Positions 10,940 to 36,935 of a stretch of 64,000 bases of DNA are shown one piece after another. Under the pieces are notes generated by a model. That model was not told where the DNA came from, made no database searches, and was given only the letters and a program-made list of their open reading frames with translations. Numbering within the stretch: the first letter of the stretch is position 1; each line of letters opens with the position of its first letter. The position numbers and the translations under genes are program-made. Where the stretch lies: the NCBI GenBank assembly GCA_964617735.1, contig CAZTXT010000002.1, positions 12,536-76,535 of the forward strand. The letters run 5' to 3'. Origin of the DNA: an uncultured Candidatus Saccharibacteria bacterium. GTDB taxonomy: Bacteria > Patescibacteriota > Minisyncoccia > Phycocordibacterales > DSPV01.

Positions 10940-10966
10940 AACATTGAGCAAATAATCTCTCAAAAA

Positions 10967-12016: not shown

Positions 12017-12020
12017 CCCC

Positions 12021-12851: not shown

Positions 12852-12856
12852 CATCC

Positions 12857-15167: not shown

Positions 15168-15186
15168 CCGGCTCTCTCGATTACCC

Positions 15187-18059: not shown

Positions 18060-18063
18060 TCAC

Positions 18064-19697: not shown

Positions 19698-20494
19698 GCT
19701 TATCGCATCGAGTAGAGCGCATAAAACGTGCATGGTCCGAGCGCAAACGACAGCGGAAAGGAGAATCGCTGATAAAAAAATATGCTCGATTCCCGCGCTA
19801 CACGCCAACGACACTGCACTGGGATGGCATCGAGTTGTCGGCCCCTGACGGCATTTCAGTTGCGCATCAGATCAACGAGGTATTGATGCTGGAGAAATTA
19901 AGATTTGATACCCCATCAAATCCGATCATCTACGATTGCGGCGCGAATGTCGGTGTCGTAAGCATCTATTTTAAAAAGCTCTTTCCGCAAGCAAAGATAA
20001 TCGCGTTCGAAGCAGATACAAAAATCGCTTCATTCCTGAAAGAAAACCTCAGAAAAAACAAAGTCGAGGATATATCCGTCGTGGAAAAAGCCGTATGGGT
20101 CGATTCCAAGGGGGTTGATTTTGGCTCTGAAGGAGCCGACGCGGGCTCGATCCATCGAACGCAGGAGAAAACCAGAGTACCGTCAGTGCGACTGCGCGAT
20201 TACCTTGCCTCGGAAAAACGCATCGCGATGCTCAAGATCGACATCGAAGGGGCGGAACTCGAAGTCCTGGAAGACTGCCGGGATGCGCTCAACGGAGTCG
20301 AGAGAATCTTCGTCGAATTCCATTGCGAGAAATCAAAACCACAAAAACTCGACCGTATGTTAAGCCTGCTCTCGGAAAACGGGTTCAGATATTTCATAGA
20401 GAATACGACCGTACTAAAGCATCCATTCATCGATATCCCCAAAGGCCCTACGGATCTTCAGGTCAATATCTATGCATATCGCCGCAAGAATTAA
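19694..20494 (+). CDS. FkbM-family methyltransferase
   Basis: IYDCGANVGVVSIYF and a C-terminal FkbM-like region. The start was set at the internal ATG 19694 (ATGA overlap). Confidence 0.65.
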   Translation: MSLSHRVERIKRAWSERKRQRKGESLIKKYARFPRYTPTTLHWDGIELSAPDGISVAHQINEVLMLEKLRFDTPSNPIIYDCGANVGVVSIYFKKLFPQAKIIAFEADTKIASFLKENLRKNKVEDISVVEKAVWVDSKGVDFGSEGADAGSIHRTQEKTRVPSVRLRDYLASEKRIAMLKIDIEGAELEVLEDCRDALNGVERIFVEFHCEKSKPQKLDRMLSLLSENGFRYFIENTTVLKHPFIDIPKGPTDLQVNIYAYRRKN

Positions 20495-21476
20495 ACGAAA
20501 GATCGGAACTCTACGTGAGGCCGCGGTGGCTAAAATCGCGCTCTCCGGAGAGGGGGCGCTGGCACTTTTGTATCATCGCATCGCCACCCTTCCCTACGAC
20601 CCACAACGACTCTGCGTCTCCCCTGAGAATTTCAGGGACCAGCTTGCACACCTCAAGAGAACCTATCGCATGCTCCACCCGAAAGAATTCATCGAGATCA
20701 TTACCGCAAAGAGGGCTCTCCCCAAACGAAGCTGCATCATAACGTTCGACGACGGATATGCAGACAATGTCAAAGAGGCGCTGCCGATCCTTGAGGATGC
20801 AGGCGTCACTGCTATCTTTTTCATTGCGACCGGATATGTCGGCGGGCGGCGTGAATTCTGGTGGGATGCACTCGAACAAATCGTTTTGGGCAAAGAAGTG
20901 CTCGGGGTCCCCTTCCTCCCGCTTTCGGTTTCGTCTCCTGTCGCAGGAAAACGCATAGAGCACCGGACTATTGTTTCAGATAAAGATCGGCATTACTTCT
21001 ACCGCGATATGATTAGACTTCTCAAAACCCTTCGGCCTGATGAGCGCGATTCGATCATACGCGATGTCGCGCAAAGCTTTGGCAGAGAGCTCAAAACCAG
21101 AGAATCGCACCGACCCATGACCGAAGCGGAGTTGGTATCACTCTCCCGATCACCCTCTGCAGTCATCGGCGCCCATACCGTGCACCACGCAAGCCTCGGC
21201 GTACTCACACCGAAAGAGCAACTCGAAGAACTATCGGAGTCGAAAAATACGCTTCAGAAAATAACGGGAAAGTCCGTGGCCGCCGTGGCGTATCCCTATG
21301 GGAGCGCGCATGACTTCAATAGAGAGACGAAAATCGCATGCCGCAACGCAGGCTTCACGCTCGCGTTTTCCAACTGCCCGGGGAAGATAAAGTCGCACTC
21401 CGACCTCTTCGCGCTGCCGAGAATCATGGTTCAAAACGTCGAGGGAGCGGCTCTATCCTCTTCTCTACCCCAATAA
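20472..21476 (+). CDS. polysaccharide deacetylase (NodB-homology / CE4) family protein
   Basis: CIITFDDGYADNV (TFDDG motif) and downstream His motifs. Confidence 0.7.
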   Translation: MHIAARIKRKIGTLREAAVAKIALSGEGALALLYHRIATLPYDPQRLCVSPENFRDQLAHLKRTYRMLHPKEFIEIITAKRALPKRSCIITFDDGYADNVKEALPILEDAGVTAIFFIATGYVGGRREFWWDALEQIVLGKEVLGVPFLPLSVSSPVAGKRIEHRTIVSDKDRHYFYRDMIRLLKTLRPDERDSIIRDVAQSFGRELKTRESHRPMTEAELVSLSRSPSAVIGAHTVHHASLGVLTPKEQLEELSESKNTLQKITGKSVAAVAYPYGSAHDFNRETKIACRNAGFTLAFSNCPGKIKSHSDLFALPRIMVQNVEGAALSSSLPQ

Positions 21477-21482
21477 TCTACA

Positions 21483-22742
21483 ATGCGCATTTTAGAGATC
21501 AATACTATAGATACTCGAGGAGGGGCAGCCAAAGTCGCCTGGACGCTCAAAGGAGAGTTTGAGCGAGCGGGGAACGTCGTCGACTTCTTCGTAAAGCACC
21601 GATACTCGAACGATCCGCATACCTTTGTAATGCGCTGGCCGAGCACCATGAGCCGATCACTGCAGAGAATCCTCAGAAAAGATGTGGGGAGTTTCCTCGA
21701 GAATAAATTGCGCCCGTATCTGGCCAACGATTTAGAGTGGTTCGGCACCGAGAAATTGCTCGAGACCGAAGCTTTTCAAAAAGCGGATATCATCCACTGC
21801 CACAATCTCCATGGAAATTATTTCAGCCTCAAAACCCTAGAGCAGATGTCGGCCCAAAAACCCGTAATCTGGACACTCCACGATATGTGGGCGCTGACGG
21901 CGCATTGCGCGCACACCAAACTTGCGATAGGAAACGATGGATTTTTCCCGTGCGAAAGCCGCAACGCCTATCAATCGCTCTGCTGGCCCAACGAAGCGCA
22001 CCTCACCTCGGTCAAGAAAGAAACCTACGCGCGCTCCACGCTCCATATCGTAGCACCGTGCCACTGGCTGGATCGAAAAGTCTCGGAGAGCATTCTTCAG
22101 CATATGCCTCGCAGTGTGATACCCAATGGTATAGATGTCTCGCTATTCTCGCCAAAAGATAAGAAGGCCCTGCGAGAACGCCTGAATATACCACCTGAAA
22201 GCTGCGTAATACTATTCTCAAGCGCAAGCGGCGCGAGCAGAGAAAAAGGAGGAGACGAGCTGCGCACGATCACACAACATTTTTCAAAGAGAACAGATGT
22301 GCTATTTCTCCTGATCGGAGACACTAAAGAAGTCATGGGCGAGCAGGTACGGTCAATACCGTTTATGGAAAAGCAAAGCGATCTCGCTGATCTCTATGCA
22401 GCCGCAGATATATTTCTTTTCCCTTCTCATGCGGAAACATTCCCTCTTTCAGTACTTGAAGCGATGAGTTCAGGACTTCCTGTCGTTGCGTTCAATGTAG
22501 GAGGAATCAAAGAGGCCGTCACTGATGGCGAGACAGGGTTCCTTTCTGACCCCCTCGATACTGATTCACTGATCAACGCAATCGAAAGACTCATCGGGAT
22601 GGGAGCGAGCGGCCGCAAGAAAATGGGCGAAACTGCTCGGGCCCGCGCGGTCAAAGATTTCAGTCAAACGCGCATGGCCGAGAGCTACAAAGCGCTCTAC
22701 CAACAGGTGCTCACCGAAAGAGCATCGACAAAACATTCATGA
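21483..22742 (+). CDS. GT4-family glycosyltransferase
   Basis: GT-B architecture with a C-terminal EX7E-like region (FPSHAETFPLSVLEAMSSGLPVVA). Confidence 0.8.
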   Translation: MRILEINTIDTRGGAAKVAWTLKGEFERAGNVVDFFVKHRYSNDPHTFVMRWPSTMSRSLQRILRKDVGSFLENKLRPYLANDLEWFGTEKLLETEAFQKADIIHCHNLHGNYFSLKTLEQMSAQKPVIWTLHDMWALTAHCAHTKLAIGNDGFFPCESRNAYQSLCWPNEAHLTSVKKETYARSTLHIVAPCHWLDRKVSESILQHMPRSVIPNGIDVSLFSPKDKKALRERLNIPPESCVILFSSASGASREKGGDELRTITQHFSKRTDVLFLLIGDTKEVMGEQVRSIPFMEKQSDLADLYAAADIFLFPSHAETFPLSVLEAMSSGLPVVAFNVGGIKEAVTDGETGFLSDPLDTDSLINAIERLIGMGASGRKKMGETARARAVKDFSQTRMAESYKALYQQVLTERASTKHS

Positions 22743-23548
22743 TCGTCGTCACCCTACAAGGAGGTCTCGGTAATCAACTGTTCCAATATGCCGCGGGACG
22801 CGCTTTTGCCGCGAAACTCAAAACAAAGGTTTCTTTCGACCCCGCATGGTTCGCCGCAAGTAAACAGCGAACGCTTAAACTCGATCAGTTCAAACTCTCG
22901 CCTGATACGCAAATAGAAATAGGTGTCGGCAAACGCCTTCGGACACCCAAGCACGTGCATGAACGTCTTCCCGGCTTCGATCCTATCCTCACACTTACCG
23001 ATAATTGCATCTACGACGGGTATTGGCAGAGTAGCAAGTACTTCGAGGATATTGGGCAAGAGATCCGCACGGAATTGGAGCTTAAGAATCCGCCAAGCAA
23101 AAGAATGCAGGAGTGGGCAGATGTGATAGCAAGTTCCGCGGGCAGTGTTTCCCTGCATATCCGGCGCGGCGATTACCTCTGGGAAAAACATCAATCGGTA
23201 CTCGGCGTCCTGCCAATCGCCTATTATAAGGAAGCGATCAAAATGCTTGCCGAACGAATAGGCACTCTAACCCTCTTCGTTTTCTCCGACGATATCCCGT
23301 GGGCAAAAAAGAATCTTGACTCCCCTTTTAAGACCTACTTCGTCTCCGACCCCACACTGATCGACACCGAAGAACTGTTCCTGATGAGCCACTGCAGACA
23401 CCATATCATTGCGAACTCCTCCTTCAGTTGGTGGGCGGCGTGGATTAATCAAAAACCAGAGAAGCTAGTGCTTGCGCCCAAAAATTGGTTCAAAGACAAA
23501 GAGCGAGAGCCTCGAGATCTAATTCCGGATACATGGATAACACTCTAG
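22739..23548 (+). CDS. GT11-family alpha-1,2-fucosyltransferase-like glycosyltransferase
   Basis: Motif I GGLGNQLFQYA, HIRRGDY and a C-terminal NSSFSWWAAW motif, all GT11 hallmarks. Confidence 0.7.
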   Translation: MIVVTLQGGLGNQLFQYAAGRAFAAKLKTKVSFDPAWFAASKQRTLKLDQFKLSPDTQIEIGVGKRLRTPKHVHERLPGFDPILTLTDNCIYDGYWQSSKYFEDIGQEIRTELELKNPPSKRMQEWADVIASSAGSVSLHIRRGDYLWEKHQSVLGVLPIAYYKEAIKMLAERIGTLTLFVFSDDIPWAKKNLDSPFKTYFVSDPTLIDTEELFLMSHCRHHIIANSSFSWWAAWINQKPEKLVLAPKNWFKDKEREPRDLIPDTWITL

Positions 23549-24573
23549 CAAAACCGAAAATAAGCGTGCTCATGCCGGTTTATAATGGCGAACGTTTCAT
23601 CGCCGAGTCCATCCACAGCGTGTTCAACCAGACGTTCACCGATTTTGAACTGTTAGTGATAGACGATGGATCGACCGATCAAAGCGCAGCGATCGTCAGC
23701 TCATTTAAGGACAAACGCATCAGACTCGTGCGCAATGAGAAAAACCGGGGACTTGTCGCGGTCCGCAATCAAGCAATCGAACTCTCCCGAGGCGAGTACC
23801 TCGCATGGCTCGATGCCGATGACATCGCACTGCCTGATCGGCTCAAGCAGGAGAGCTCGTTTCTCGACGCACACCATGAGGTAGGGCTTATCGGATGCGC
23901 CGCCGCCATCATCGACGAGGAGGGCAAACGAACGGGTATCGTCTGGAAGAATGCCACCCCACCCGAGAAGATGTCGGTGATGCTCCTCTTCCACAATTGC
24001 TTCACCCAATCGTCGGTAATGCTCCGCCGACCCGCTCTGCTGAATGAGAAGTATCGCGAAGGCTTCGCGCCGGCAGAAGATTACGAACTCTGGACCCGGA
24101 TTGCTGCCACAAAGAAATGCATGAATCTCCCTAAGGTCCTCACTCTCTACCGCAAACATAGAAGCGTCTCTGGATCGAATACTGAAAAAGGGCGGGTTGC
24201 GATCGAGAGAATTACCCGAAGCGAGTTGCAGAAACTGGGGATCAACCCAACAGGAGAGGAATACCGTCTGCACCGAACCAACTATGGATATGACGGGAAC
24301 GACCTGTATAAATTCCTGGATGCTCGGGAATCCTGGCTCATGCGCCTAAAGGAAGCGAATACATCTGCACAGCGCTTCGATACGAAAATATTCGACGAAG
24401 TCCTTGCCGAGCGCTGGCTTGCATCCTGCAGTGCTAATGCAAGCGGTGGCCTGCGCGTCTGGAGACGATTCTGGGATTCTGAACTCCTTAGAGGAGTCAA
24501 AATCGGGCAGCAGCTGATGAGTATCCTGAAATTCGCAATCAAGTGCAGCGTGCGTGTACGCCGGCGTCAATAA
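23533..24573 (+). CDS. GT2-family glycosyltransferase
   Basis: ISVLMPVYNGERFIAESIHSVFNQTFTDFELLVIDDGSTD (GT-A DXD region). The start was set at MDNTLAK (23533); the track start is 23485. Confidence 0.8.
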   Translation: MDNTLAKPKISVLMPVYNGERFIAESIHSVFNQTFTDFELLVIDDGSTDQSAAIVSSFKDKRIRLVRNEKNRGLVAVRNQAIELSRGEYLAWLDADDIALPDRLKQESSFLDAHHEVGLIGCAAAIIDEEGKRTGIVWKNATPPEKMSVMLLFHNCFTQSSVMLRRPALLNEKYREGFAPAEDYELWTRIAATKKCMNLPKVLTLYRKHRSVSGSNTEKGRVAIERITRSELQKLGINPTGEEYRLHRTNYGYDGNDLYKFLDARESWLMRLKEANTSAQRFDTKIFDEVLAERWLASCSANASGGLRVWRRFWDSELLRGVKIGQQLMSILKFAIKCSVRVRRRQ

Positions 24574-24584
24574 ATCCCATCGAA

Positions 24585-25508
24585 ATGCTCATTACCGCAC
24601 TAAGACGAGTAAAGAGAATGGTCCGGGAAACTCGAAAAGCCCTCGCAACACGCTGGCTTTACTTTAGAGCGAACCACCGCAAGAGAGAACACCTCGTCAT
24701 CACTGATTCCGGCCAAAAGGGCGACGATATCTATCCGATGTCGTGTAAAGCCCGCGGATTCTTCTCCTTATTCAACGAGATACTCGATACGATAGCTCTG
24801 TATGGAACAAGCGATATCAGCGTGGTACTCAATCATACGCATTACAACGAACGAGAGACAGACAACATGTGGGATTATTATTTCGAGCCAGTCCAGAATG
24901 TGTCTAAACGCAATTACAAGGCATCGTTCAATATTCGGCCGTTCCGGGACCATCGGATCATGGAGAGTCCAAAGAAGATTGCGCTCTTGCATGAGGTACT
25001 GCAAAAAAGAGTCGTGGTGAAAAAAGAGATACAGCAGGACGCAGATGCTTTTTATGCACAGCACCTTTCAGGACATACCGTCATCGGCGTCCACTTCCGC
25101 GGATACGACGTCGCGGATAATTTTGCTATCGTCTCTCACCTTCTGCGCAAAGCTCCACCCGAGGATTATTGCTCCGTGCTCGATTCAACCCCTTTTGACT
25201 ATGTCTTTCTCGCCACCGATGATATGCCAGCGTACGAATTCTTCCAAAAACGCTATCCGGGTAAAGTCATCTCCTTTTCCCGCCTGAGAGATGACACGAA
25301 GAAAGTCGTTCTCGCGCATAGCGACAAATTCTCCAAAAAAGAATTAGGGAGAGAAGTGCTCATCGACTGCCTGTTGCTCTCTCGCTGTAATATACTGCTC
25401 CACGGCAGCTCAAACATTCCCGCAGCCGCCAAATTCCTCAACCCTGCATTGAAAACCGTGAACCTCGATGTTCTGGCGCTAGAAAAAGAAAAACGGGCCG
25501 GCCGCTGA
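24585..25508 (+). CDS. putative glycosyltransferase of the fucosyltransferase-like (GT11/GT23/GT65) superfamily
   Basis: GVHFRGYD parallels the HxRRGD motif. VFLATDD and HGSSNIPAAAKFL parallel GT11 motifs III and IV. The similarity is weak and taken from memory. Confidence 0.35.
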   Translation: MLITALRRVKRMVRETRKALATRWLYFRANHRKREHLVITDSGQKGDDIYPMSCKARGFFSLFNEILDTIALYGTSDISVVLNHTHYNERETDNMWDYYFEPVQNVSKRNYKASFNIRPFRDHRIMESPKKIALLHEVLQKRVVVKKEIQQDADAFYAQHLSGHTVIGVHFRGYDVADNFAIVSHLLRKAPPEDYCSVLDSTPFDYVFLATDDMPAYEFFQKRYPGKVISFSRLRDDTKKVVLAHSDKFSKKELGREVLIDCLLLSRCNILLHGSSNIPAAAKFLNPALKTVNLDVLALEKEKRAGR

Positions 25509-26765: not shown

Positions 26766-27935
26766 ATGCAAAAGAAGATACCTCCACGGACACATAAAAA
26801 AGCAAGCCGGAGCGATCCGGCGCTTAAACGTCTGATCCCGGTTTCGGAACCGAACATCGGAGAAAAAGAAAAACGCTACCTAATCGATGCTATCGAGAGC
26901 GGTTGGGTATCATCCAACGGCCCTTACTTGGCTCGATTCGAAAGAAATTTTGCCGCTTATTGTGGACGGGCATACGGACAAGTCGTATCGAATGGGACCG
27001 TCGCACTACACCTGGCGCTTCTTGCACTGGAGATAGGCCCAGGCGATGAAGTCATTGTTCCGAATCTAAGCTTCGTGGCCTCCGCGAATGCCGTCGTGCA
27101 TGCGGGAGCGACTCCTATCTTCGTTGACATAGAACCTGATACGCTCAACATCGATGCGGCGAAAATAAAAGCGAAGATCTCACCCCGCACGAAAGCCATT
27201 ATGGTCGTGCACCTTTTGGGCCACCCAAGCGATATGGACGCGATCGAGAGTATCGCCCGGGAACACCAATTGCGTATCATAGAAGATGCCGCCGAAGCTC
27301 ACGGAGCAACCTATAAAGGCAGAATGTGCGGCTCATTCGGAGATGTCAGTTGTTTCAGCTTCTACGGAAATAAAACTATCACGATGGGCGAAGGAGGAAT
27401 CTGTCTCACCGATGATGCGGAGCTTTATAGAAAAATCAACATCCTTCGCGGTCAGGGAATGACACCGAATAAACGCTACTGGCATGAGATCGTTGGCTAC
27501 AATTATCGCCTGACCAACATTCAAGCGGCACTCGGCTCTGCCCAGCTCGAGCGGATAGGTGAGCTTTTGAAAATAAAACGAGCGAATGCCAAGCTCTATC
27601 AAAAGCTTCTTTCTGGAATAGCGGGTGTTTCCTTTCCCGTTGAAAAGCCCTACGCAAAGAGCAGCTATTGGATGGTAACGATCATGGTTAATACGAAGAA
27701 AGCTGGTATGTCGAGAGATGCGCTGGGAGAGGAGCTGGGCAAAAGAGGTATAGAAACAAGAATACTTTTCTATCCAATTTCTCATTTGCCCCCGTATAAG
27801 ATGAACGGAAAAGGACTGGACGTATCGGAGAGTATCGCGTATGAAGGACTCATGCTGCCGTCATCAACAAAGCTTTCATCAAAAGATATCGCCTATATTT
27901 GCGACCAGATCAAGGATATCCTCGCAAGAAAATGA
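26766..27935 (+). CDS. DegT/DnrJ/EryC1/StrS-family PLP-dependent nucleotide-sugar aminotransferase
   Basis: The N-terminal SNGTVALHLAL block and overall similarity to PglE/PseC/LegC-type aminotransferases. Confidence 0.85.
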   Translation: MQKKIPPRTHKKASRSDPALKRLIPVSEPNIGEKEKRYLIDAIESGWVSSNGPYLARFERNFAAYCGRAYGQVVSNGTVALHLALLALEIGPGDEVIVPNLSFVASANAVVHAGATPIFVDIEPDTLNIDAAKIKAKISPRTKAIMVVHLLGHPSDMDAIESIAREHQLRIIEDAAEAHGATYKGRMCGSFGDVSCFSFYGNKTITMGEGGICLTDDAELYRKINILRGQGMTPNKRYWHEIVGYNYRLTNIQAALGSAQLERIGELLKIKRANAKLYQKLLSGIAGVSFPVEKPYAKSSYWMVTIMVNTKKAGMSRDALGEELGKRGIETRILFYPISHLPPYKMNGKGLDVSESIAYEGLMLPSSTKLSSKDIAYICDQIKDILARK

Positions 27936-29209
27936 CCATCGGTTTTTATTTCGAGTGTCAGAAAAGATCAGGTGGGGTTTATCAATATGCCCTCAACATC
28001 CTGGCTTCGCTGCGCGAGATGCGCGAGCATCGATTCATCGTATTCAACATCTCACCCGACTTCCCTTTTGATGAGTTTCGTCTATCCAACTGGAGCATCA
28101 TCAATCTGATACCGATCGCCCAAAAGAGCGCTCCGTCCGCAAAAACCGAGACACCTCAACAAAAAGAAGTGCGCTACTATGCCTTCAAAAGGCGCCTATC
28201 GCTTCTTATTATCTCTTTTCTGCGCGTACTACATCTTTATTCTCTTGAAGCATTTTTTGCTCAGCAGAAATCAAAGATGCGCGCGCGCGCGTTTGACGGT
28301 AAAGGGATCGATCTCATGCTTTTCCACGGACCTTCTGAACTCTCGTTTCTCACCAAAATTCCTTCTATCGTCCCAGTCCATGACATCCATCACAAACTAC
28401 ATCCCGAGTCTCCGGAGCTTTCAGACATCGGACAATTTAAAAAACGTGAACTCCAAATCGAACAGATTAAAAAACATGCCTATAAAATAATCACGAACTC
28501 GCCTGTAGTTCGAAAGGACTTGATCCGTCTCTATGGGATTCCAGCAGAGCGCGTGGAATCGGTACCCTGTCCACCCCCTCTGTATATGCACGCAAAAATA
28601 GAACCCGATGCTCGCATACGGGTTCAACAGAAATATCACATCCCGGATAAATTCCTTTTTTATCCAGCGCAATTCTGGCCGCATAAAAACCACCGCGGTC
28701 TCATTGAAGCGATGAAAATACTTAAAGACGCAGGTCTTACCCCCAACCTCGTCCTTGTCGGTAGCAATCAGCCGCTGTGGGGAGAATATGAGCGAGTTCA
28801 GAAACTTTCCAGTCAGTATGGGCTTGAGGGCCAGATCCACATTCTCGGTTATGTTGAAAACGAAGAAATGCCCGTGCTCTACAGCATGGCAGAGGCTATG
28901 GTGATGCCGACCCTCTTCGGGTTTACCTATCCGGTATTCGAGGCTTGGCTTGCAGGCTGTCCGGTAATCTACTCCAACGACCGGACCTCGCGGGAGCAAG
29001 CAGGCGATGCGGCGCTTCTCGTTGATCCACACAACCCAGCGGATATCGCCGATAAGATAAAAAGAATTCTTGAGGACAAGGCACTCAGAAAAGACCTTAT
29101 TCAAAAAGGGCTCGCGAATGCCGCACGCAATTCGTCCGAGAAACTAACTGCTAAAATAAGAGAACTATTCACTACGTTTGAAAAAGAGAGGCGCGCCCGA
29201 ACACGTTAA
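27932..29209 (+). CDS. GT4-family glycosyltransferase
   Basis: C-terminal GT4 core (LVGSNQPLWGEYERV...MVMPTLFGFTYPVFEAWLAGCPVI). The start was set at ATG 27932 (ATGA overlap with the upstream stop). Confidence 0.75.
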   Translation: MTIGFYFECQKRSGGVYQYALNILASLREMREHRFIVFNISPDFPFDEFRLSNWSIINLIPIAQKSAPSAKTETPQQKEVRYYAFKRRLSLLIISFLRVLHLYSLEAFFAQQKSKMRARAFDGKGIDLMLFHGPSELSFLTKIPSIVPVHDIHHKLHPESPELSDIGQFKKRELQIEQIKKHAYKIITNSPVVRKDLIRLYGIPAERVESVPCPPPLYMHAKIEPDARIRVQQKYHIPDKFLFYPAQFWPHKNHRGLIEAMKILKDAGLTPNLVLVGSNQPLWGEYERVQKLSSQYGLEGQIHILGYVENEEMPVLYSMAEAMVMPTLFGFTYPVFEAWLAGCPVIYSNDRTSREQAGDAALLVDPHNPADIADKIKRILEDKALRKDLIQKGLANAARNSSEKLTAKIRELFTTFEKERRARTR

Positions 29210-29820
29210 TCGGAGATATCTTTTATTTCCGGATTGAGCCTGTCTAGGTATCTCACCTTGTCGGGAATATCCTTAATGACGGTCGCTCCCATGCCGATTA
29301 CAACATAATCACCGACCGTAATGTGGTCGCGGATCAAGGTACCCATTCCAACAAACGTACTCTCTCCGATGACCACCCCTCCGCCGGTCGCAACGTTAGG
29401 ATTTAAGTCTGAATGATCCCCGACCACGTTGTCATGATCCACATTGACATGGTTATTGATGAGCACGTTACTGCCGATCTTAGAATTGACGTTGATGTGA
29501 CTGAACGCCCCCACCATGACGTTTTGACCCAGCGAGACGCTATCCTCCACAAATGCTTCTGGGTGAATCGCGTTTACAAATTTCGCGCCCGATCTCTTCA
29601 GAAGCTCATAGGCCTCCCGTCGAAATTGTATGTTGCCGATAGCCACAAAAAAATGATGATCTGGTACGAACTTCTTGAACTCTTCCGTCTTACCCAGCAC
29701 GTGCGGACCCTCGATCTGCTCATCTAAAAAGCCCACGACCCGATTCTTAGGATCATGCTCTAAAATGTTCTTGATGACGAAACCGTTTTGCCCCCCACCA
29801 ACAATAATTATTTTTTTCAT
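29206..29820 (-). CDS. hexapeptide-repeat (left-handed beta-helix) sugar N-acetyltransferase (PglD/NeuD/WbpD-like)
   Basis: An N-terminal Rossmann-like KKIIIVGGGQNG is followed by imperfect hexapeptide repeats. The start was set at MKKIII (29820); the track start is 29868. Confidence 0.7.
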   Translation of the reverse strand: MKKIIIVGGGQNGFVIKNILEHDPKNRVVGFLDEQIEGPHVLGKTEEFKKFVPDHHFFVAIGNIQFRREAYELLKRSGAKFVNAIHPEAFVEDSVSLGQNVMVGAFSHINVNSKIGSNVLINNHVNVDHDNVVGDHSDLNPNVATGGGVVIGESTFVGMGTLIRDHITVGDYVVIGMGATVIKDIPDKVRYLDRLNPEIKDISD

Positions 29821-29907
29821 ATCAAGGCCAGATGAGCCTACGTTACCGATGAACGGCTCATAAATCAAGTCTCTAGTTCCATTTTACACTCCCAATTATA
29901 GCATGCT

Positions 29908-30753
29908 ATGATGACCGCTATGGCTTTTAAAAAATGCGATTGCGAACTCTGCAGATTCGAAAATCCCAAGATCGCGACCGCCGCGATCATTATTAATGAT
30001 CAAAAACTTCTCGTTGCTAAAAGAAACACCGAACCGTTCAAGGGCGCATGGGATTTTTTTGGCGGTTACGCATCGAAGGGCGAGACTCCAGAAGAAAGCC
30101 ATCGCAGAGAAATAAAGGAAGAGCTCGGGACTGACTGCGAAGTTACTTTTTTGGGCGCCTTTCCCGGCACTGCCAGCTACAAAGAGTTCGAATTTCCTGT
30201 GGTCAATTTCGCGTATCTGACAGAATTAAAAGGCACGATCAAACTCGACACGAAGGAAAACTCGCACGCTGCGTGGATTCCGATCGCGGATATGAAAGAT
30301 ATCGCTTTTGATTCAAACCGAAAAATACTCGATTTTTTGAAGAAGAAATGGACGTTCGATCTAGAGACGTTAAGAAAACTGGTACACCAGCTTGACCCTT
30401 CCGCTGTGGTAAGTGAGCAATCACTCTATAAAGCGATGCTCAACGGTTTTATCAGCACCGTTTACGATGGAGGTAGGCTGGTTGGCATGGGCTGGATCTT
30501 CCCGCGTCAGACGCTTTTACGAAAACAAGCGGTCGTTGAGGACATGATCGTCGACGATAGCGAGCGTGGCAAAGGCCTCGGGAAAAAGATCCTTCTGGAT
30601 CTGCTTGCATGGGCGAAGAGCGAAGGCGTTGAGGTGGTCGAACTGACCACCAATCCAAAACGAGTCGCCGCGAACTCTCTCTACCAAAAAGTTGGTTTCA
30701 AACTCCACGTTACCAACCACTACCTATTGGACTTGGAAAAGTACACCTCGTAA
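29908..30753 (+). CDS. NUDIX hydrolase - GNAT N-acetyltransferase fusion protein
   Basis: The N-terminal Nudix box is GGYASKGETPEESHRREIKEELG. The C-terminal GNAT core is QAVVEDMIVDDSERGKGLGKKILLDLLAWAK... Confidence 0.65.
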   Translation: MMTAMAFKKCDCELCRFENPKIATAAIIINDQKLLVAKRNTEPFKGAWDFFGGYASKGETPEESHRREIKEELGTDCEVTFLGAFPGTASYKEFEFPVVNFAYLTELKGTIKLDTKENSHAAWIPIADMKDIAFDSNRKILDFLKKKWTFDLETLRKLVHQLDPSAVVSEQSLYKAMLNGFISTVYDGGRLVGMGWIFPRQTLLRKQAVVEDMIVDDSERGKGLGKKILLDLLAWAKSEGVEVVELTTNPKRVAANSLYQKVGFKLHVTNHYLLDLEKYTS

Positions 30754-30755
30754 GA

Positions 30756-30792
30756 AAAAGAAACCGCCACGCTATTGTACGTGGCGGCTTTC
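30756..30792. terminator. bidirectional rho-independent terminator between convergent genes
   Basis: An 8-bp stem ccgccacg/cgtggcgg with flanking A-run and T-run (aagaaaaagaaa ... ctttcgtat). Confidence 0.6.
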
Positions 30793-30804: not shown

Positions 30805-31356
30805 TCAGTAAGGGAAGATCGTGTCGTAGAGATCAAGAAGCGCTTTGTGAATACCCGTGTCTGCTAAGAGCTTCTCCCGATTGTACTCCTGGAGACCCCA
30901 ACCAGGAACGTATCCGGTTTTTTCGAGATTTGCTGCCGTATGTTCACGTTCTTGTGGAGTCAGCTCCACAGCAAAAACTTGAACAACGCCATGGCAACCA
31001 ACGTTTTGGGGTTCTTGCTCGCGATCCTTCCAAAGGTACTCGTTCTCTTTCACATAGGTGAAACGCTCCGCCCCAAGAAGCAAGGAAGTCTCTCTAAAGA
31101 AGACCCTCTCGATTGCTTGAATGGGGGTCTGACCAGCAGCTCGCCGTCCGCCGATCACCCAAACTCCCTGCATCGGCTTCTGTGAACGTTTTATAAGCCA
31201 AAACGTCTTACGTAAACTATCAATAACGACAGCGTCCACGCAGACGATGATGAAGCTACGTATCGCTTCCTCGTATGCTGTGGCAGTCATAAAGTACCGC
31301 TGCATACTGTGTTCAGGCGTTTCCCGATAAAGGGTCGGGAGGGTTGCTTCTTTCAC
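30805..31356 (-). CDS. NUDIX-fold hydrolase-like protein (possible GDP-sugar hydrolase analog)
   Basis: It has a degenerate Nudix-like segment, GGRRAAGQTPIQAIERVFFRETSLLLG. The family call is weak. Confidence 0.3.
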   Translation of the reverse strand: MKEATLPTLYRETPEHSMQRYFMTATAYEEAIRSFIIVCVDAVVIDSLRKTFWLIKRSQKPMQGVWVIGGRRAAGQTPIQAIERVFFRETSLLLGAERFTYVKENEYLWKDREQEPQNVGCHGVVQVFAVELTPQEREHTAANLEKTGYVPGWGLQEYNREKLLADTGIHKALLDLYDTIFPY

Positions 31357-31660: not shown

Positions 31661-32623
31661 TCATTGAGAACTAGCGAAAAAGGAGCGATGGAGATGCTCG
31701 GCGAGGAATTGTCTTCCCTGCGCATTAAGATGCTCATCAGGAAATGGGCCATGGATAAAATTACTCGAGTCTAGATCAAAAGCCCAATTGAAGCATGTAA
31801 CTCCTTTTTCCGAGAGAACATGACACACGGTCTCTGCGTTCTTTCTGGTTTGAGGCAGGAAGTCTTTACCGACATATCGCTCTCCATTTTGATAATCGAT
31901 CGGCGTCAAATATGAGTACACTGCAATCCCCGCGGCCTGCGCGGTTTCTATCGCGTCCTCAAGTGAGCGGAGCTTACGATGATCTTCGCCCAGGTCGTAC
32001 ATATAATCGTAGATGTAGACGTCTCTGATATTTTCAGTGGTAGTAGCGGACTTCAGTTTATTCTCAAAATCCCTTACCAACCCAACCGTCGTAGTTCCAT
32101 AATACACCGGTGTCTGCAGAAATTTCTCTTCAGGAACCTCATTAAGGTTAAGGGCTCCCAGAATCGCAAGCGGACGATAAAAATCGGTCACTATCTTCGG
32201 CCGAGCTGAAAAGAAGAACTTGAGCTTTTCCGCCTGATACTCGGGTTTTAGATCCCAGCTCGGAGAAAATGAACGCAGATTGATCGGAATGATCACCGCC
32301 TGGGGGCGAACCGCCTCCCGGCTAATGTAGTGAAGATAGATTGCATACATATCAGTGTTATCGGACCCACGCGAAAAGTCGGCGATAGAATATGCCGGGT
32401 CGATTTTCGCGATCTTTTCCGCAACAGTTGATTTGTCCGCTTCGTGGGTTTGTACGGTTTTGGGCACGCTGTCCCCAAAGTAAATGACGCGCTGATGCTC
32501 GCGCAAGAATCTATCGAGCAACGCCACTTCGGGTACTGGGCCGATAATGAATCGAGAGATGAGAATCTGGGAAATAAGGATTATGATCAGAAATCCAAGA
32601 GATTTGTACAAGATCGGTTTCAT
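31661..32623 (-). CDS. membrane-anchored SGNH/DltD-AlgX-like protein (extracytoplasmic partner of the MBOAT)
   Basis: A single N-terminal TM anchor (ILYKSLGFLIIILISQILISRF) is followed by a GDS block (VIYFGDSVP). Its position immediately downstream of the MBOAT resembles DltB-DltD and AlgI-AlgJ/X pairs. The start was set at MKPIL (32623); the track start is 32656. Confidence 0.55.
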   Translation of the reverse strand: MKPILYKSLGFLIIILISQILISRFIIGPVPEVALLDRFLREHQRVIYFGDSVPKTVQTHEADKSTVAEKIAKIDPAYSIADFSRGSDNTDMYAIYLHYISREAVRPQAVIIPINLRSFSPSWDLKPEYQAEKLKFFFSARPKIVTDFYRPLAILGALNLNEVPEEKFLQTPVYYGTTTVGLVRDFENKLKSATTTENIRDVYIYDYMYDLGEDHRKLRSLEDAIETAQAAGIAVYSYLTPIDYQNGERYVGKDFLPQTRKNAETVCHVLSEKGVTCFNWAFDLDSSNFIHGPFPDEHLNAQGRQFLAEHLHRSFFASSQ

Positions 32624-32624
32624 A

Positions 32625-34130
32625 TCAGAATTGGAAATAAATAAAACGGATCTCATGGGTTACACCGAGATTGAGGACCGCAAGGACGCTCAATGCATAG
32701 AGAAGATATCGGATCCATCCAGCGCTCCCATGGATCCGACGCGCCAGATCAAAACGGCTATCCGCTATCTCAACCACAACGAACGCTGCCACGATCGCTA
32801 TATACAAAAAGAGATGAAGTTTTCCTGTCGGAGCGAACGCACTGCTCACAATCTCTCGCAGAGGGTTAAGCGAAAACTCCATAAGGGAAGTCGCCACGGC
32901 AGCGATCGAACTTCCAACGCTTACGATGGCGCTCCTCAAGATAAACAAGGAATCCGAAAATGAGGCGGCTCTGAAGAAAATAAAGCCAGAACAAACCAGC
33001 GCAAAGGTTATTATGACGCTTATCCCGTGGGAAAGTCGGGGAAATCGGGATAATTTGAGAAGTTCAGCGGACCTCTTTCGCCACCGCTCGGTAACCTGTC
33101 CGAGAACTATATAGACGCCATGGATCCCACCAAACGCGACGTAGGTCCACGCCGCACCGTGCCAGAGACCATTGAGCAAAAAGGTGATCAGTGCTGCTCC
33201 CGCGATCCGTATTTGCAGATTCCCTTTTTTCCAGAGCGCGAGCGGATAATAAACATAGTCGCGCAGCCAGTTCGAAAGCGAAATATGCCAACGCCTCCAA
33301 AATTCCGCGATGGAGGGTGCGAGGAACGGCCGGTCAAAATTCACCGTAAGGTCATATCCTAAAACACGCGCCGAGCCGACCGCGATATCGGAATATCCGG
33401 AAAAATCGCCGTAGACCTGAAATGCGAAGAAGACAGTCGCGGCAATGAACGCAAGTCCCGAATACTCGTGGGGGTGGGAGAAAACTGGAGTCGCATAGCT
33501 TGCCAGGTTGTCAGCGATAACGACCTTTTTGAAAAAACCCCACAACATCCGCTCTAACCCGCGCCGAACGGAATCTGGATCGAACGCATGGCTTGCTTTA
33601 AGTTGAGGCAGTAGGTGGGCAGGACGTTCGATGGGGCCAGCCACGAGCTGGGGAAAGAAAAGGACGTAGAGAGCATAGGTCAGGATATTCTTCTCTGCAC
33701 GGTACCGCCCCCAATACACCTCGATCACATAGCTTAAACTTTGAAAGACGTGGAATGAGAGGCCGAGCGGAAGGGCAACCCCGAGAATGACGAGAGGATA
33801 GTTCCAATGTAGAAACTGCGCGATGGTCGCAACGTTTTCGTTGAAAAAGTTGAAGTATTTGAAGAAGAAAAGCGTGCCGATATTGGCGGCGATACTTAAT
33901 AGCAAGAGGATCGTGCGCTTCCTACCCTGGAACTGCTCCATCGCCTGCGCCAAGAAGAAGTCGGTGACAATGAGAAAGATGAGAATAAGGATATACTTCG
34001 GGATAAAAGCCATGTAAAAGTAGCAGCTTGCCGCAAGCATCATCAAGGGACGGACCTTGGGTGCCATCGCATAATACGCAATGACCACTACAGGGAAAAA
34101 GATGAAAAATGAGAGCGAGTTGAATCCCAT
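32625..34130 (-). CDS. MBOAT-family membrane-bound O-acyltransferase (DltB/AlgI/PatA-like)
   Basis: 501 aa and polytopic, with the conserved MBOAT His region WRRWHISLSNWLRDYVYYPL. Confidence 0.85.
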   Translation of the reverse strand: MGFNSLSFFIFFPVVVIAYYAMAPKVRPLMMLAASCYFYMAFIPKYILILIFLIVTDFFLAQAMEQFQGRKRTILLLLSIAANIGTLFFFKYFNFFNENVATIAQFLHWNYPLVILGVALPLGLSFHVFQSLSYVIEVYWGRYRAEKNILTYALYVLFFPQLVAGPIERPAHLLPQLKASHAFDPDSVRRGLERMLWGFFKKVVIADNLASYATPVFSHPHEYSGLAFIAATVFFAFQVYGDFSGYSDIAVGSARVLGYDLTVNFDRPFLAPSIAEFWRRWHISLSNWLRDYVYYPLALWKKGNLQIRIAGAALITFLLNGLWHGAAWTYVAFGGIHGVYIVLGQVTERWRKRSAELLKLSRFPRLSHGISVIITFALVCSGFIFFRAASFSDSLFILRSAIVSVGSSIAAVATSLMEFSLNPLREIVSSAFAPTGKLHLFLYIAIVAAFVVVEIADSRFDLARRIHGSAGWIRYLLYALSVLAVLNLGVTHEIRFIYFQF

Positions 34131-34135
34131 GATAG

Positions 34136-34894
34136 CTACAATTCCTCGGTTTCAGGTGCCACCAGCATGGTTAAATCCTTTTCTTCGCATCGATCCGAAC
34201 AAAGCGAAGATACTACAACCGCCACATCGGATGCTTCAGCGAGTTTACCGGTCGGACTGCCCCTCCTGACCATCTCTAAGAAGGCTGCCGGTGTATCTTT
34301 ATTGAGACCGCCCGGGAGCACCCCCGGTGCGACCGAATAGACCCGAACGGAAAACGGTGCTAGTTCCTCGCGTAGTGCTACAAGCATCCCCTGCTGTGCG
34401 AATTTCATCGGACTATAAGCTCCACGAGCTTTCGTGTTGACTGGAGTAGAAACCGACGCTGTTGTGATCCCAATTAGTACCCCTCTTCCGGCACGCTTGA
34501 GAGCGTCGGCGCAGTGGGAAAGGAAATTAAAACTGCCGAAGACATTGGTCTCGAACTGTTCGCGGAGATCCTCAATCGACGTACGGTAGAGCGGCGCGCG
34601 CTTCGGCAGGGTACCCGCCGCATGAATACATGCGTAAGGAACCTCCCTATAGTCTTGTTCGATACCATCGAGCACACGTGACAGTGCAGAAGAATCTCTA
34701 AGATCGCATGAATACGATCGATGGCCCGATCCGGTAAGCCCCGCAAGAAACTTTGTAACCTCTGGTGCCGAAGATGTGTGGTAGAGCGCTGCGATGAAAA
34801 ACCCGTCAGCAGCGAGTTTGCGGCAAATGGCCGAACCCACATATCCCATTGAGCCTGACACGACCGCGATGTGTTTTTTTGTGCTTTTTGTCAT
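34136..34894 (-). CDS. SDR-family oxidoreductase (FabG-like ketoreductase)
   Basis: Gly-rich dinucleotide motif VVSGSMGYVGSAI and catalytic YSPMK (YxxxK). Confidence 0.8.
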   Translation of the reverse strand: MTKSTKKHIAVVSGSMGYVGSAICRKLAADGFFIAALYHTSSAPEVTKFLAGLTGSGHRSYSCDLRDSSALSRVLDGIEQDYREVPYACIHAAGTLPKRAPLYRTSIEDLREQFETNVFGSFNFLSHCADALKRAGRGVLIGITTASVSTPVNTKARGAYSPMKFAQQGMLVALREELAPFSVRVYSVAPGVLPGGLNKDTPAAFLEMVRRGSPTGKLAEASDVAVVVSSLCSDRCEEKDLTMLVAPETEEL

Positions 34895-34897
34895 CGA

Positions 34898-35323
34898 TCA
34901 ATCTCTGACCTGAACCGTGGCGACCCCACAGACAACCTCTTCTCTGCCCTTGCGGACCGAGATATCCACATCGATGACGCGCGTTGCGGGACTCTTCGAC
35001 TGTACAGTCCCGATGACCTCAACGGTATCCCCCATATACACCGGCTTCTTGAAGCTCAAGGTCTGACGGAGATATAAACAGCTTTCTCCCGGCAAATGCA
35101 TGCCGACCATCCGCGAGCAGAGCGCTCCGATCAGCATCCCATGCACCAGTCTCCGGCCAAAACTCGTCTTTTGCGCGTACGCATCATCCATATGGAGTGG
35201 ATTCTCATCGCCCGAGAGACGCGCGAAGTCCAAAACATCTTGAGCGTTGATAGTACGCTCAAAACGGGCGGTGTCCCCCACTGAGATATCCGAAAAATGC
35301 CGATGTGCAGGGATTTTATTCAT
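34898..35323 (-). CDS. MaoC-like (R)-specific enoyl hydratase/dehydratase (hotdog fold)
   Basis: DENPLHMDDAYAQKTSFGRRLVHGML is the MaoC dehydratase signature. Confidence 0.75.
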   Translation of the reverse strand: MNKIPAHRHFSDISVGDTARFERTINAQDVLDFARLSGDENPLHMDDAYAQKTSFGRRLVHGMLIGALCSRMVGMHLPGESCLYLRQTLSFKKPVYMGDTVEVIGTVQSKSPATRVIDVDISVRKGREEVVCGVATVQVRD

Positions 35324-35550
35324 AAGTTCTTCCCACGCTTAAGAACGACGCGGCGTATATCGCCGACAGTTTTTGAGCTGACGACTTCATCGATAGTAAA
35401 AGAGAAACCGAAACGTTTTTCCAGTTCCGAGATGAAAAATAAGTAGTTCATAGAATCCCATTCCGGGATATCTTTAGGGGAAAGCGAGTCAGAGATGCTC
35501 TGGAGCGGAATCTTAAAAACCCTATGCAGTATGGTATCAAAATCATGCAT
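35320..35550 (-). CDS. acyl carrier protein (phosphopantetheine attachment)
   Basis: 76 aa. EWDSMNYLFFISELEKRFGF contains a DSL-type Ser attachment motif (DSM). Confidence 0.75.
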   Translation of the reverse strand: MHDFDTILHRVFKIPLQSISDSLSPKDIPEWDSMNYLFFISELEKRFGFSFTIDEVVSSKTVGDIRRVVLKRGKNL

Positions 35551-36592
35551 GGCTCAGTTTGACCCAACGAGGGGTTTTAAAAGACTCCGACAGAGAGCCC
35601 TCTCCTCCCCCAAAGACTCTCCGAACAAAATCTCGCGCGGGCCCATTCTTTTCCGACTCGACAAAATCGATGGTCGTCTTCAGGGCACCGCTCTCACTGG
35701 CACGGCGTACAATAAAGGACACAAAAGCATCTTCCACGCCCCGGCCAAATACTCGACAGCTCATCAGAAGGTATTCTATCGCCCACACCGACGGGTTGGT
35801 GCGTACTAGCGCAAACGCGATAACGCCGTAATCCCCGAACCGATCGCTTAACGTAGCATGAAAAACCCGATAGTCGCCGCTTCGGATATATTTTCGTATC
35901 TCGGGTTCAGAGAGTGGTTGCTTGTGGATGTTAAACTGGTTCGTTTTTTCAGTCAGTTGCGAGAGACGTGCAAGATGCAGGTCGCTGTCTTCATAGACTG
36001 TTAGTTCCAGATGTAAACTCTTCAAGAAATCTTCTTTCGTCGGAGAACGACTCTCCTCGGCTCTCCGCAATCTCTCGGTAACATAATAATTTCCGCGCAT
36101 GGTATCTTCATCGGTAACCGCGTCCATTGCAAAATACGGCAAGGCGTTGAGAAAACGAACATAGTCGGAAGGACTCTCCGGCATCTCCGGCGTCTCCACT
36201 TCAGGTACCAGCGAGCGCGCCAGCGCGCGATTGGTCGGATCATCATCCAAAAATACCATCGAGTCGAGACCGATATTCAATTCTTGCGCCAACTCGCGCA
36301 GATTCTGCGCTTTGTCATTCCAATTGATACGCGCTGCCGCGAAGTGATGCTCTTTGAGCACCATATTAGGATGAGCACGTATCACCTGCCACGCATCGTC
36401 AGGATTATTTCTGCTATTGATAGCCAACAAGACACCGCTCTGTTGCCGATCGAGAAGCATTTGTTGAAATGCCAGAAAATAATTCCCGGGCGGATCGAGC
36501 GAAAGCGCGATACCCTCTATACCATCCTCTCCCGCGACGCCTCCCCAGAGGGTATTGTCGAGATCGACTACGATGCATTTTTTGTTATTCAT
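35543..36592 (-). CDS. FkbH-like protein (HAD-superfamily IIIC phosphatase/acyl-ACP-forming loader)
   Basis: HAD motif I VVDLDNTLWGGV, the FkbH-like middle region and a C-terminal GNAT-like tail. The start was chosen at MNNKKCIVVD (36592); the track start is 36646. Confidence 0.7.
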   Translation of the reverse strand: MNNKKCIVVDLDNTLWGGVAGEDGIEGIALSLDPPGNYFLAFQQMLLDRQQSGVLLAINSRNNPDDAWQVIRAHPNMVLKEHHFAAARINWNDKAQNLRELAQELNIGLDSMVFLDDDPTNRALARSLVPEVETPEMPESPSDYVRFLNALPYFAMDAVTDEDTMRGNYYVTERLRRAEESRSPTKEDFLKSLHLELTVYEDSDLHLARLSQLTEKTNQFNIHKQPLSEPEIRKYIRSGDYRVFHATLSDRFGDYGVIAFALVRTNPSVWAIEYLLMSCRVFGRGVEDAFVSFIVRRASESGALKTTIDFVESEKNGPARDFVRRVFGGGEGSLSESFKTPRWVKLSHA

Positions 36593-36935
36593 ATAACTGA
36601 ACCGCAATGGCAACTGCCATGGTCTTTTCATGGCTAATCGAGACAAGTATGGAGCGTTGGTATCGATTGCGGATCCACACTCCCGGTCTTCCGTCCTTAC
36701 CGCGCCGTATCTCGATGCTCCTGATCAAGCGCAGTGGGTCTGTGAAAGTCTTACGTACGGCTTCCTTTGCCGCAAAAGTCCCTGCCAAATGCACCCGAGC
36801 ATCTTTGAAAGAAAAACAATGCGCGCGCTCGATTGCGCTGAAATTGTCAAGCAAAAAGCGACTTTTTCGATCCCGTTCGAACGGCGCAAAACGCTTAACC
36901 GCCACGATATCGATACCGACGCCGCGAACACCCAT
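36585..36935 (-). CDS. acpS: holo-[acyl-carrier-protein] synthase (4'-phosphopantetheinyl transferase, AcpS type)
   Basis: MGVRGVGIDIVAVKRF... (the GIDIV motif) and a length of about 117 aa from the internal start at 36935. Confidence 0.7.
   Translation of the reverse strand: MGVRGVGIDIVAVKRFAPFERDRKSRFLLDNFSAIERAHCFSFKDARVHLAGTFAAKEAVRKTFTDPLRLIRSIEIRRGKDGRPGVWIRNRYQRSILVSISHEKTMAVAIAVQLYE

Follow-up and report, generated by a model that had tools for sequence, protein, structure and literature searches.

The gene at 29908-30753 (+ strand) of a 64,000-nucleotide stretch of DNA from an uncultured Candidatus Saccharibacteria bacterium (hereafter the window) encodes a NUDIX-GNAT fusion, a polypeptide of 281 amino acids in which a Nudix pyrophosphohydrolase domain is followed by a GNAT acetyltransferase domain. 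The protein belongs to one tight orthologous family that has so far been found only in Patescibacteria, the candidate phyla radiation (CPR). Its association with amino-sugar genes is real, yet it is not specific to loci for nonulosonates (NulO), and the fusion is not a dedicated nonulosonate enzyme. We tentatively favor, at slightly less than an even chance, an enzyme of the UDP-N-acetylglucosamine (UDP-GlcNAc) pool, the GNAT half of which would N-acetylate a hexosamine phosphate in the manner of GNA1 or the C-terminal domain of GlmU. Gene context and partial motif agreement are the grounds from which we infer the substrates of both halves. Peptidoglycan and most surface glycans of bacteria start from UDP-GlcNAc, the synthesis of which in model bacteria relies on the bifunctional, essential GlmU. 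A large bacterial radiation appears to carry only the uridylyltransferase half of this enzyme. If the GNAT half is the lacking acetyltransferase, a metabolic gap in CPR reconstructions would be filled, and the fusion would be another GNAT to have arrived independently at the GNA1 reaction, a second case of what is already known from Apicomplexa (PMC5838249).

The fusion has 413 matches among 5.8 billion proteins searched. The best 120 of these 413 are all about 271 amino acids long, have the two-domain architecture and are 64–75% identical; their named sources are all Woese-, Levy-, Giovannoni-, Uhr- or other Patescibacteria. The architecture is common to more than 400 homologs (55–75% identical). 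Among 50%-identity representatives (1.84 billion searched), six reach E ≤ 1e-30, beyond which the matches are standalone GNATs of about 143 amino acids and zinc-ribbon Nudix proteins of about 170 amino acids. Ten apparent two-domain relatives were tested with Pfam and set aside, nine as tandem Nudix-Nudix proteins and one as a GNAT without a Nudix match, and no fusion of the reverse order, GNAT-Nudix, was found among these ten. Pattern scans located 37 loci in GTDB species representatives and 173 in metagenomes. The fusion is conserved far above its neighbors, which fits a common central substrate: against loci whose fusion copies are 67–70% identical to that of the window, the DegT protein of the window is only 37% identical, PglD 28–36% and MurB/MurC 34–41%. 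The copy in the window shares 73.7% identity with a copy in a DnaG-RpoD context, 70–72.7% with copies in mur/GlmS loci and at most 67% with copies in NeuB contexts, and no context-specific subfamily was seen in the identity comparison across contexts. An initial annotation of the window had called the arrangement undescribed, and a search of a library of papers found no published description of the NUDIX-GNAT fusion. Split and single-domain forms also occur. In the NeuB-linked locus L043, a Nudix half (177 amino acids) and a GNAT half (132 amino acids) are encoded by separate adjacent open reading frames (ORFs; 3990-4912), together with two PseH-like GNATs, a formyltransferase-like gene and a DUF4910 gene; L042 (6065-6469), L044 (7230-7718) and L045 have relatives (55–65% identical) that consist of the GNAT alone.

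The genomic neighborhood was surveyed in 127 loci, which were collapsed to 92 groups at 97% fusion identity. Of these groups, 65 had 5 kb or more of flanking sequence; their ORFs were clustered, the seeds were assigned with Pfam and NCBIfam, and neighbors were counted within ±10 kb. The context that points most directly to UDP-GlcNAc synthesis is the mur/dcw cluster (8 loci). Eight non-redundant loci have the gene order MurA / MurE~GlmU-N / YvcK/GlmR / fusion / GlmS / MurC / MurB, where MurE~GlmU-N (a neighbor in 8/65 loci) joins MurE to a GlmU-like nucleotidyltransferase and YvcK (8/65 loci) scores above its NCBIfam cutoff. In L065 the order is rearranged, and the fusion still lies between GlmS and MurE~GlmU-N. 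The gene that follows the fusion in this context aligns over its full length with E. coli GlmS (7e-118), and GlmS or its remains stand alongside the fusion in 8/8 mur-cluster loci: GlmS is intact in L049, L050, L104 and L065, frameshifted in L052 (3886-4733), L054 (10827-12394) and L055, and reduced to a remnant of 40 amino acids in L006 (8815-8934)/L058. The roles of GlmS, GlmM and GlmU have been summarized (PMC4358021). GlmR/YvcK binds UDP-GlcNAc and activates GlmS (PMC7525490, PMC6171935), and a uridyltransferase activity of GlmR has been reported (PMC13046274).

The GlmU-like part of the MurE~GlmU-N proteins (L006/L058 5072-6970; L049 1222-3168; also L061, L065 and L104) covers GlmU positions 2-243 of about 450 and is then followed by the C-terminus, with no Hexapep or left-handed β-helix (LβH) domain. 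The Hexapep domain is likewise absent from 120/120 best CPR homologs of the GlmU-N domain, several of which are encoded on contigs of 270–680 kb. Since GlmU-N lacks the Hexapep half, no canonical enzyme is in sight in the loci examined for the acetylation that UDP-GlcNAc synthesis requires; of this pathway, only the acetyltransferase and the mutase are otherwise without an assigned gene in the mur clusters. The conserved GNAT of the fusion is encoded at just that gap, among GlmS, GlmR, GlmU-N and Mur genes. An extra GlmU-N-type nucleotidyltransferase in L091 (5962-7356) is joined not to an LβH domain but to a HAD-like domain (motif FIFDIDNT), which may be a phosphatase or phosphomutase of the same pathway.

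In the proposed mechanism, the GNAT half would catalyze the acetyl-CoA-dependent N-acetylation of glucosamine-6-phosphate or glucosamine-1-phosphate (GlcN-1-P). It would thereby do the job of GNA1 or of the LβH half of GlmU, which is absent from the CPR GlmU-type uridylyltransferases examined, and its product would lead to UDP-GlcNAc for peptidoglycan and for every glycan pathway derived from UDP-GlcNAc. Different lineages would place the fusion in the mur cluster or beside pathways that consume UDP-GlcNAc, in the window a DegT/PglD/NeuB glycan island; a role in UDP-GlcNAc supply would explain why the gene was recruited beside such pathways. The proposed reaction (N-acetylation of GlcN-1-P) and pathway position are those of the LβH half of GlmU, and the fusion, like that half, is placed beside a GlmU-type uridylyltransferase, GlmS and GlmR. 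However, the GlmU domain is a left-handed β-helix, whereas the fusion has a GNAT fold and could be a functional analog at most. In the CPR GlmU-type proteins examined, the LβH half is absent, and what is present of GlmU is the uridylyltransferase half, either as a protein of its own or joined to MurE.

The GNAT domain (30355-30732, amino acids ~150-275) was assigned with Acetyltransf_1 at 56.9 bits (cutoff 20.7; 3e-15 over amino acids 180-264), and its acetyl-CoA motif RGKGLG is invariant in 26 homologs. A separate model of the domain (mean predicted local distance difference test score, pLDDT, 82.6) adopts the GNAT topology. In the alignments an E211-D212 dyad (26 sequences) and Y259 are invariant, as are the basic residues R200, R205, K251 and R252. 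The dyad is located at the start of β4, and its counterpart in T. brucei GNA1 is the IEDVVV motif; in C. elegans GNA1, the Glu104/Asp105 dyad, which E211-D212 matches, contacts the 3-OH and 4-OH of the sugar (PMC3413214). The PDB sequence matches of the domain include four GNA1 proteins, those of T. brucei (1.6e-7), A. thaliana, human and A. fumigatus, with E values up to 0.48. Eukaryotic GNA1 and the fusion share a small GNAT with a Glu-Asp dyad at the β4 start followed by R-G-x-G-L-G, the Tyr of a ..LYxKxGF motif and, by prediction, the same place in the UDP-GlcNAc pathway. They differ in that identity is only ~26% over 82 residues and that the fusion carries a Nudix domain and is bacterial (CPR). 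On the alignment evidence, the GNAT domain is no GNA1 orthologue. By analogy with the independently evolved GNAT-type GNA1 of Apicomplexa (PMC5838249), it may nevertheless work like GNA1. The GNAT-domain model was also tried as a discriminator for GNA1 and discarded; it matched generic GNATs (1y9k, RimI, Naa50) and did not separate GNA1.

Several observations weigh against the assignment to the UDP-GlcNAc pool. Lys136 and Arg164, which hold the 6-phosphate in GNA1, and the family-wide Cys141 (C. elegans GNA1 numbering) are not evidently kept, and the aligned positions are Val/Glu and Thr-Thr. By sequence, the GNAT domain is matched best by YvbK of B. subtilis and 1y9k of B. cereus, both of which have no known function, by RimI and by streptothricin and phosphinothricin acetyltransferases, and Foldseek with the GNAT domain places RimI and Naa50 above GNA1 (rank 34). 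As far as sequence comparison goes, homology fixes the substrate of neither the GNAT nor the Nudix half, and the UDP-GlcNAc model entails no necessary role for the latter. The fusion is intact where the adjoining GlmS is frameshifted or a remnant, and perhaps no more than two or three related lineages underlie the mur/GlmS loci (YvcK 55–85% identical). Furthermore, the fusion is present in only a subset of CPR (the 37 loci in species representatives), whereas GlmU lacking the LβH domain appears to be general, so the fusion cannot be a universal solution. Salvage of GlcNAc, as in Capnocytophaga, provides an alternative source of supply (PMC4358021).

The matches to RimI belong to the case for a housekeeping role unrelated to sugars, in which a MutT/RppH/NahA-like pyrophosphatase is joined to a RimI-like protein N-acetyltransferase and the copies in glycan islands mark insertion hot spots. 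RimI is the best NCBIfam match of the GNAT domain (3.9e-7), and RimI, Naa50 and Naa30 rank high in Foldseek; BdRppH and MutT are the best structural matches of the Nudix domain. Conserved syntenies with housekeeping genes are also found, in the order DnaG-RpoD-fusion (8 loci) and GreA-fusion-(aminotransferase)-LysRS-SerRS (7 loci). In B. subtilis, yvcI/nahA heads the operon yvcI(nahA)-yvcJ-glmR-yvcL-crh-yvcN, and YvcI/NahA acts on (p)ppGpp and RNA 5´ ends (PMC6171935, PMC7584652). This Nudix gene is, like the fusion, linked to glmR, a likeness of gene linkage. We nevertheless regard a housekeeping role as unlikely, because amino-sugar or glycan operons, closely spaced and varied in gene order, make up about 26–29 of the 65 loci, a share that by a rough estimate, made without a calculation, lies far above the few percent expected of a random gene. 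The scores against RimI (30 versus 86 bits) and MutT (34 versus 98 bits) fall far under their cutoffs, and most CPR species representatives lack the fusion, which would be unusual for a core housekeeping gene.

The Nudix domain (29971-30324, amino acids 22-139; Pfam NUDIX 1e-18, 68 bits against a cutoff of 21.1) has a canonical Nudix box (GYASKGETPEESHRREIKEELGT) at 30064-30132, and G52, G53, E59, R67, E68, E71 and E72 are invariant in 26 homologs, so this half is predicted to be catalytically intact. Fold matches confirm the superfamily with template modeling (TM) scores of 0.72–0.83, normalized to the target. A whole-model fold comparison for the fusion was set aside, as most of its signal came from the Nudix half. 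By sequence and fold, the domain groups with BdRppH (3ees), MutT, NudG, MutT2 and NUDT15, and not with sugar-nucleotide hydrolases: UDP-X diphosphatase comes only at rank 43 among its matches. Its relatives include enzymes acting on pyrimidine nucleotides, namely NudG, MutT2, DR0079 and CDP-Chase. The MutT 8-oxo-dGTPase model TIGR00586 gives 34.4 bits (cutoff 97.9), and MutT is nearest by fold only. In common with MutT, RppH, NudG and the COG1051 Nudix enzymes, the fusion has the canonical box, half of a zinc ribbon at the N-terminus and an AFDSN..IL motif, which is typical of COG1051 ADP-ribose-type enzymes. The half ribbon is a vestigial CxxC N-terminal to the box, where standalone relatives carry Zn_ribbon_Nudix. 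The fusion differs in that the MutT-type Lys after GG is replaced by Tyr or Phe, and all equivalog scores are well under their cutoffs.

Within the UDP-GlcNAc model, the Nudix half would hydrolyze the pyrophosphate linkage of a nucleotide belonging to the same pool, such as UDP-GlcN, UDP-GlcNAc, a pyrimidine nucleoside di- or triphosphate or an alarmone. The fusion might accordingly be a mobile supply cassette on a hybrid UDP-GlcNAc route, in which a GNA1-like GNAT is joined to an active Nudix enzyme that edits or regulates the pool, an extension that we put forward as possible and somewhat short of even. A precedent for a Nudix domain joined to a biosynthetic enzyme that serves the same metabolite pool is NadM-Nudix (NMN adenylyltransferase/ADP-ribose pyrophosphatase), which is among the PDB matches of the fusion (2qjo, 2qjt), although its partner domain and pathway are different.

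The initial annotation had read the locus as a diacetamido-sugar module in which the fusion performs two nonulosonate steps: the Nudix half, in place of PseG or LegG, would strip the nucleotide from an NDP-2,4-diacetamido-trideoxyhexose, and the GNAT half would perform a PseH-like second acetylation. Amino-sugar genes are indeed recurrent neighbors. SDR (short-chain dehydrogenase/reductase) dehydratases/epimerases occur in 23/65 loci, DegT in 19/65, PglD-like acetyltransferases in 13/65, NeuB and glycosyltransferases of family 4 (GT4) in 10/65 each, and UDP-sugar dehydrogenases and CMP-sugar synthetases in 6/65 each; RpoD and LysRS are each found in 7/65 loci. The DegT, PglD-like and NeuB neighbors often form tight operons with the fusion. 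Besides the mur and housekeeping classes given above, the contexts comprise DegT-PglF-fusion-…-MurB (3 loci), NeuB-containing loci (10, the window among them), about 15 further amino-sugar loci that lack NeuB, some of them WbpA/B/D/E-like, and uninformative loci (13). In favor of the UDP-GlcNAc model, further recurrent neighbors encode enzymes that take UDP-GlcNAc into a pathway as its first step: NeuC, PglF/PseB-type dehydratases, UDP-sugar 6-dehydrogenase and WecA/MraY-like transferases. In the window, the three genes of the proposed module form no common operon.

What the two nonulosonate steps have in their favor is an operon of UDP-sugar dehydrogenase, fusion, DegT, PglD, NeuB and dehydratase in L014, L018 and L112, within 10 kb of which neither NeuC nor PseG was detected; the 64-kb window likewise yielded no match to NeuC, PseG or LegG, nor to a CMP-nonulosonate synthetase, in profile searches. 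The chemistry points the other way. A canonical Nudix box directs attack at phosphorus and yields sugar-1-phosphate and a nucleoside monophosphate, and NeuB-type synthases require a free aldose, so the predicted product would be unusable by NeuB and the proposed shortcut would need a further phosphatase. The free sugar is what PseG (GT-B fold) and LegG/NeuC (Epimerase_2 fold) liberate; the fusion, by contrast, has a Nudix fold, and sugar-1-phosphate is predicted. The GDP-mannose mannosyl hydrolase model gives only 19.4 bits (cutoff 146), and the box of the fusion is fully canonical, which argues against the Nudix half as a replacement for PseG or LegG. The initial annotation had named a grouping with housekeeping ADP-ribose or 8-oxo-dGTP hydrolases as an outcome that would tell against its proposal, and the grouping with MutT, RppH and NudG largely amounts to that outcome.

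The acetylation step fares no better. PseH is a GNAT like the second half of the fusion, but PseH (TIGR03585) is absent from the best 25 of the 27 GNAT-domain matches at E ≤ 10, which places it at E > 0.066 at best, while the separate GNATs of the nonulosonate locus L043 match PseH at 8e-10 and 1.7e-8. No PseH or WecD structure is among the 60 PDB matches of the GNAT domain listed at E ≤ 1. The NeuB-linked loci examined have an acetyltransferase of their own besides the fusion, either PglD/hexapeptide or PseH-type. Three NeuB loci (L023, L082 and L094) already have NeuC-type hydrolyzing epimerases adjacent to the fusion or in its vicinity, and NeuC_NnaA scores 402 bits for a gene adjacent to the fusion in L008. 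The co-location of the fusion with DegT, PglD-like and NeuB genes, which recalls the PseH/PseG and LegH/LegG systems, concerns a minority of loci: 55/65 have no NeuB within 10 kb, and 23/65 lie in conserved housekeeping or mur-cluster syntenies. A fusion common in genomes without nonulosonate genes was the second outcome that the initial annotation had named as telling against it, and these counts, made within 10 kb of the fusion, largely point that way. With no nonulosonate-specific subfamily either, we consider the two nonulosonate steps very unlikely.

The frequent position of the fusion between the hexapeptide acetyltransferase and DegT is compatible with an accessory enzyme for NDP-amino sugars, the GNAT half of which would acetylate a second DegT-made amine in the manner of WecD while the Nudix half binds or clears an NDP-sugar intermediate. 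Two DegT genes are present in L014, L018, L020, L037, L046, L094 and L114, and the GNAT domain has a weak WecD-type match (PRK10975, 7e-5), far under the cutoff. The fusion is, however, uniform (55–75%) over loci with differing sugar chemistries, including WbpB/E/D-like, Leg-like, Pse-like and sugar C-methyltransferase loci, and it is present in mur and housekeeping loci without an aminotransferase. An accessory function is accordingly judged quite unlikely. A resistance or defense gene, that is, an antibiotic acetyltransferase or a phage-defense Nudix enzyme, is suggested by weak streptothricin acetyltransferase matches, by a match of the Nudix domain to the PADLOC candidate PDC-S07 (1.3e-17), and by the patchy distribution and high conservation, which suggest horizontal spread. 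The PDC-S07 score (61.7 bits) is no better than that of the generic Pfam NUDIX model (68 bits), and PDC-S07 was therefore rejected as a specific match and attributed to generic Nudix similarity. The streptothricin acetyltransferase Sat reaches 26 bits against a cutoff of 360, and no recurrent defense or mobile-element genes were found near the fusion in the 65-locus census; such a role is extremely improbable. For the UDP-GlcNAc-pool enzyme that we favor, the neighborhoods carry a caution for annotation: genes inside a nonulosonate-type island are not automatically steps of that pathway.

The three genes of the initial annotation, an aminotransferase, a hexapeptide acetyltransferase and the fusion, were recovered at the positions it gave, with assignments far beyond chance in the ORF listing, Pfam and NCBIfam. 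The gene at 26766-27935 (+) encodes a DegT/LegC-like sugar aminotransferase of 389 amino acids that depends on pyridoxal phosphate (Pfam DegT_DnrJ_EryC1, E=1.7e-125). Its best NCBIfam model is the LegC family (363 bits, cutoff 420), and the PseC model gives 290 bits (cutoff 423); by profile score it is a member of the DegT family nearest to LegC that misses both equivalog cutoffs. It is followed by the co-directional GT4 glycosyltransferase gene 27899-29209 (+; Glycos_transf_1 1.2e-28). The PglD/NeuD/LegH-type hexapeptide N-acetyltransferase at 29206-29820 (PglD_N E=1.3e-11, Hexapep E=2.1e-13 in Pfam) passes the NeuD/PglB/VioB family TIGR03570 with 180.7 bits (cutoff 160.8). Its identity was upheld, and its description needed amendment: the gene is on the minus strand, the ORF spans 29206-29868 (-), and the end at 29820 is an internal ATG (MKKIIIVGGG). 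The PglD gene is convergent with the GT4 gene and divergent from the fusion. The claim of NUDIX and GNAT domains in a single polypeptide was borne out by an uninterrupted ORF with both Pfam domains; the AlphaFold2 model of the protein has a pLDDT of 85.8 and a predicted TM score (pTM) of 0.78. The fusion is a single-gene unit. Its 3´ end is followed by a hairpin with a 12-bp stem at 30761-30790, terminator-like on both strands in a consensus scan only, and then by a convergent second Nudix gene. Promoter-like sites are no more frequent than in shuffled sequence. Horizontal transfer of the block from DegT to the fusion was considered from GC content and discarded, as the difference (0.47–0.49 versus 0.51 in the window) is too small.

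The second, standalone Nudix gene (30805-31356, -) encodes 183 amino acids with a degenerate box (GGRRAAGQTPIQAIERVFFRETSL) and resembles GDP-mannose mannosyl hydrolase (NCBIfam PRK15434, 1.1e-5), the E. coli form of which (1rya, 9.4e-5) represents its sole significant PDB relatives. GDP-mannose mannosyl hydrolase is the one Nudix type known to liberate a free sugar and GDP, and a degenerate box accompanies its cleavage of the C1-O bond. From these matches, the standalone protein appears to be a better candidate than the fusion for stripping the nucleotide from a GDP-sugar in the window, and it probably belongs with the Gmd and fucosyltransferase genes.

The window is a segment of a bacterial chromosome with SecA and MurB on one flank and MurC, MurD and pyruvate kinase on the other. 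Profile searches delimit a glycan island of ~40 kb between about 9.4 and 48 kb, which contains Gmd, a second Gmd/LegB-like SDR, a Wzm/Wzt ABC exporter, methyltransferases, a polysaccharide deacetylase, many GT2 and GT4 genes, and PMT_2 and GtrA genes. The 4,6-dehydratase-like SDR at 9455-10492 (-; GDP_Man_Dehyd 7e-64; LegB 114 bits and Gmd 136 bits, both under cutoff) is a candidate for the first step of an amino-sugar branch on the basis of these profiles. The NeuB-like gene, located 12 kb from the three-gene locus at 16134-18059 (+), encodes 641 amino acids (Pfam NeuB 4e-82) and is under both cutoffs tried (NeuB_NnaB 340 bits versus 399; PseI 269 bits versus 340). In this synthase the NeuB and SAF domains are followed by an extra C-terminal TIM barrel of the AP_endonuc_2/xylose-isomerase-like type. 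The region 9455-25508 combines Gmd with three fucosyltransferase-like families, GT10 (14106-15167), GT11 (22739-23548) and NodZ-like (24543-25508), and the Wzm/Wzt exporter belongs to the same co-directional gene string. The island lies between MurB (4574-5650) and MurC, a Cu-oxidase_4/PgeF-like gene and MurD (54004-58667), and fusion, MurC and MurB are adjacent in L006; the island may thus be an expansion inside an ancestral mur cluster. An acyl-decoration module at 31661-36646 (-) contains an MBOAT/DltB-like gene (184 bits), a gene for a 331-amino-acid protein, an SDR, a MaoC dehydratase and an FkbH/HAD-IIIC gene, and an MBOAT gene is also located downstream of the fusion in L038. At the edge of the island, 48189-50757 (-) encodes a lamin-tail-domain protein and an ATPase resembling TrwB and type IV coupling proteins.

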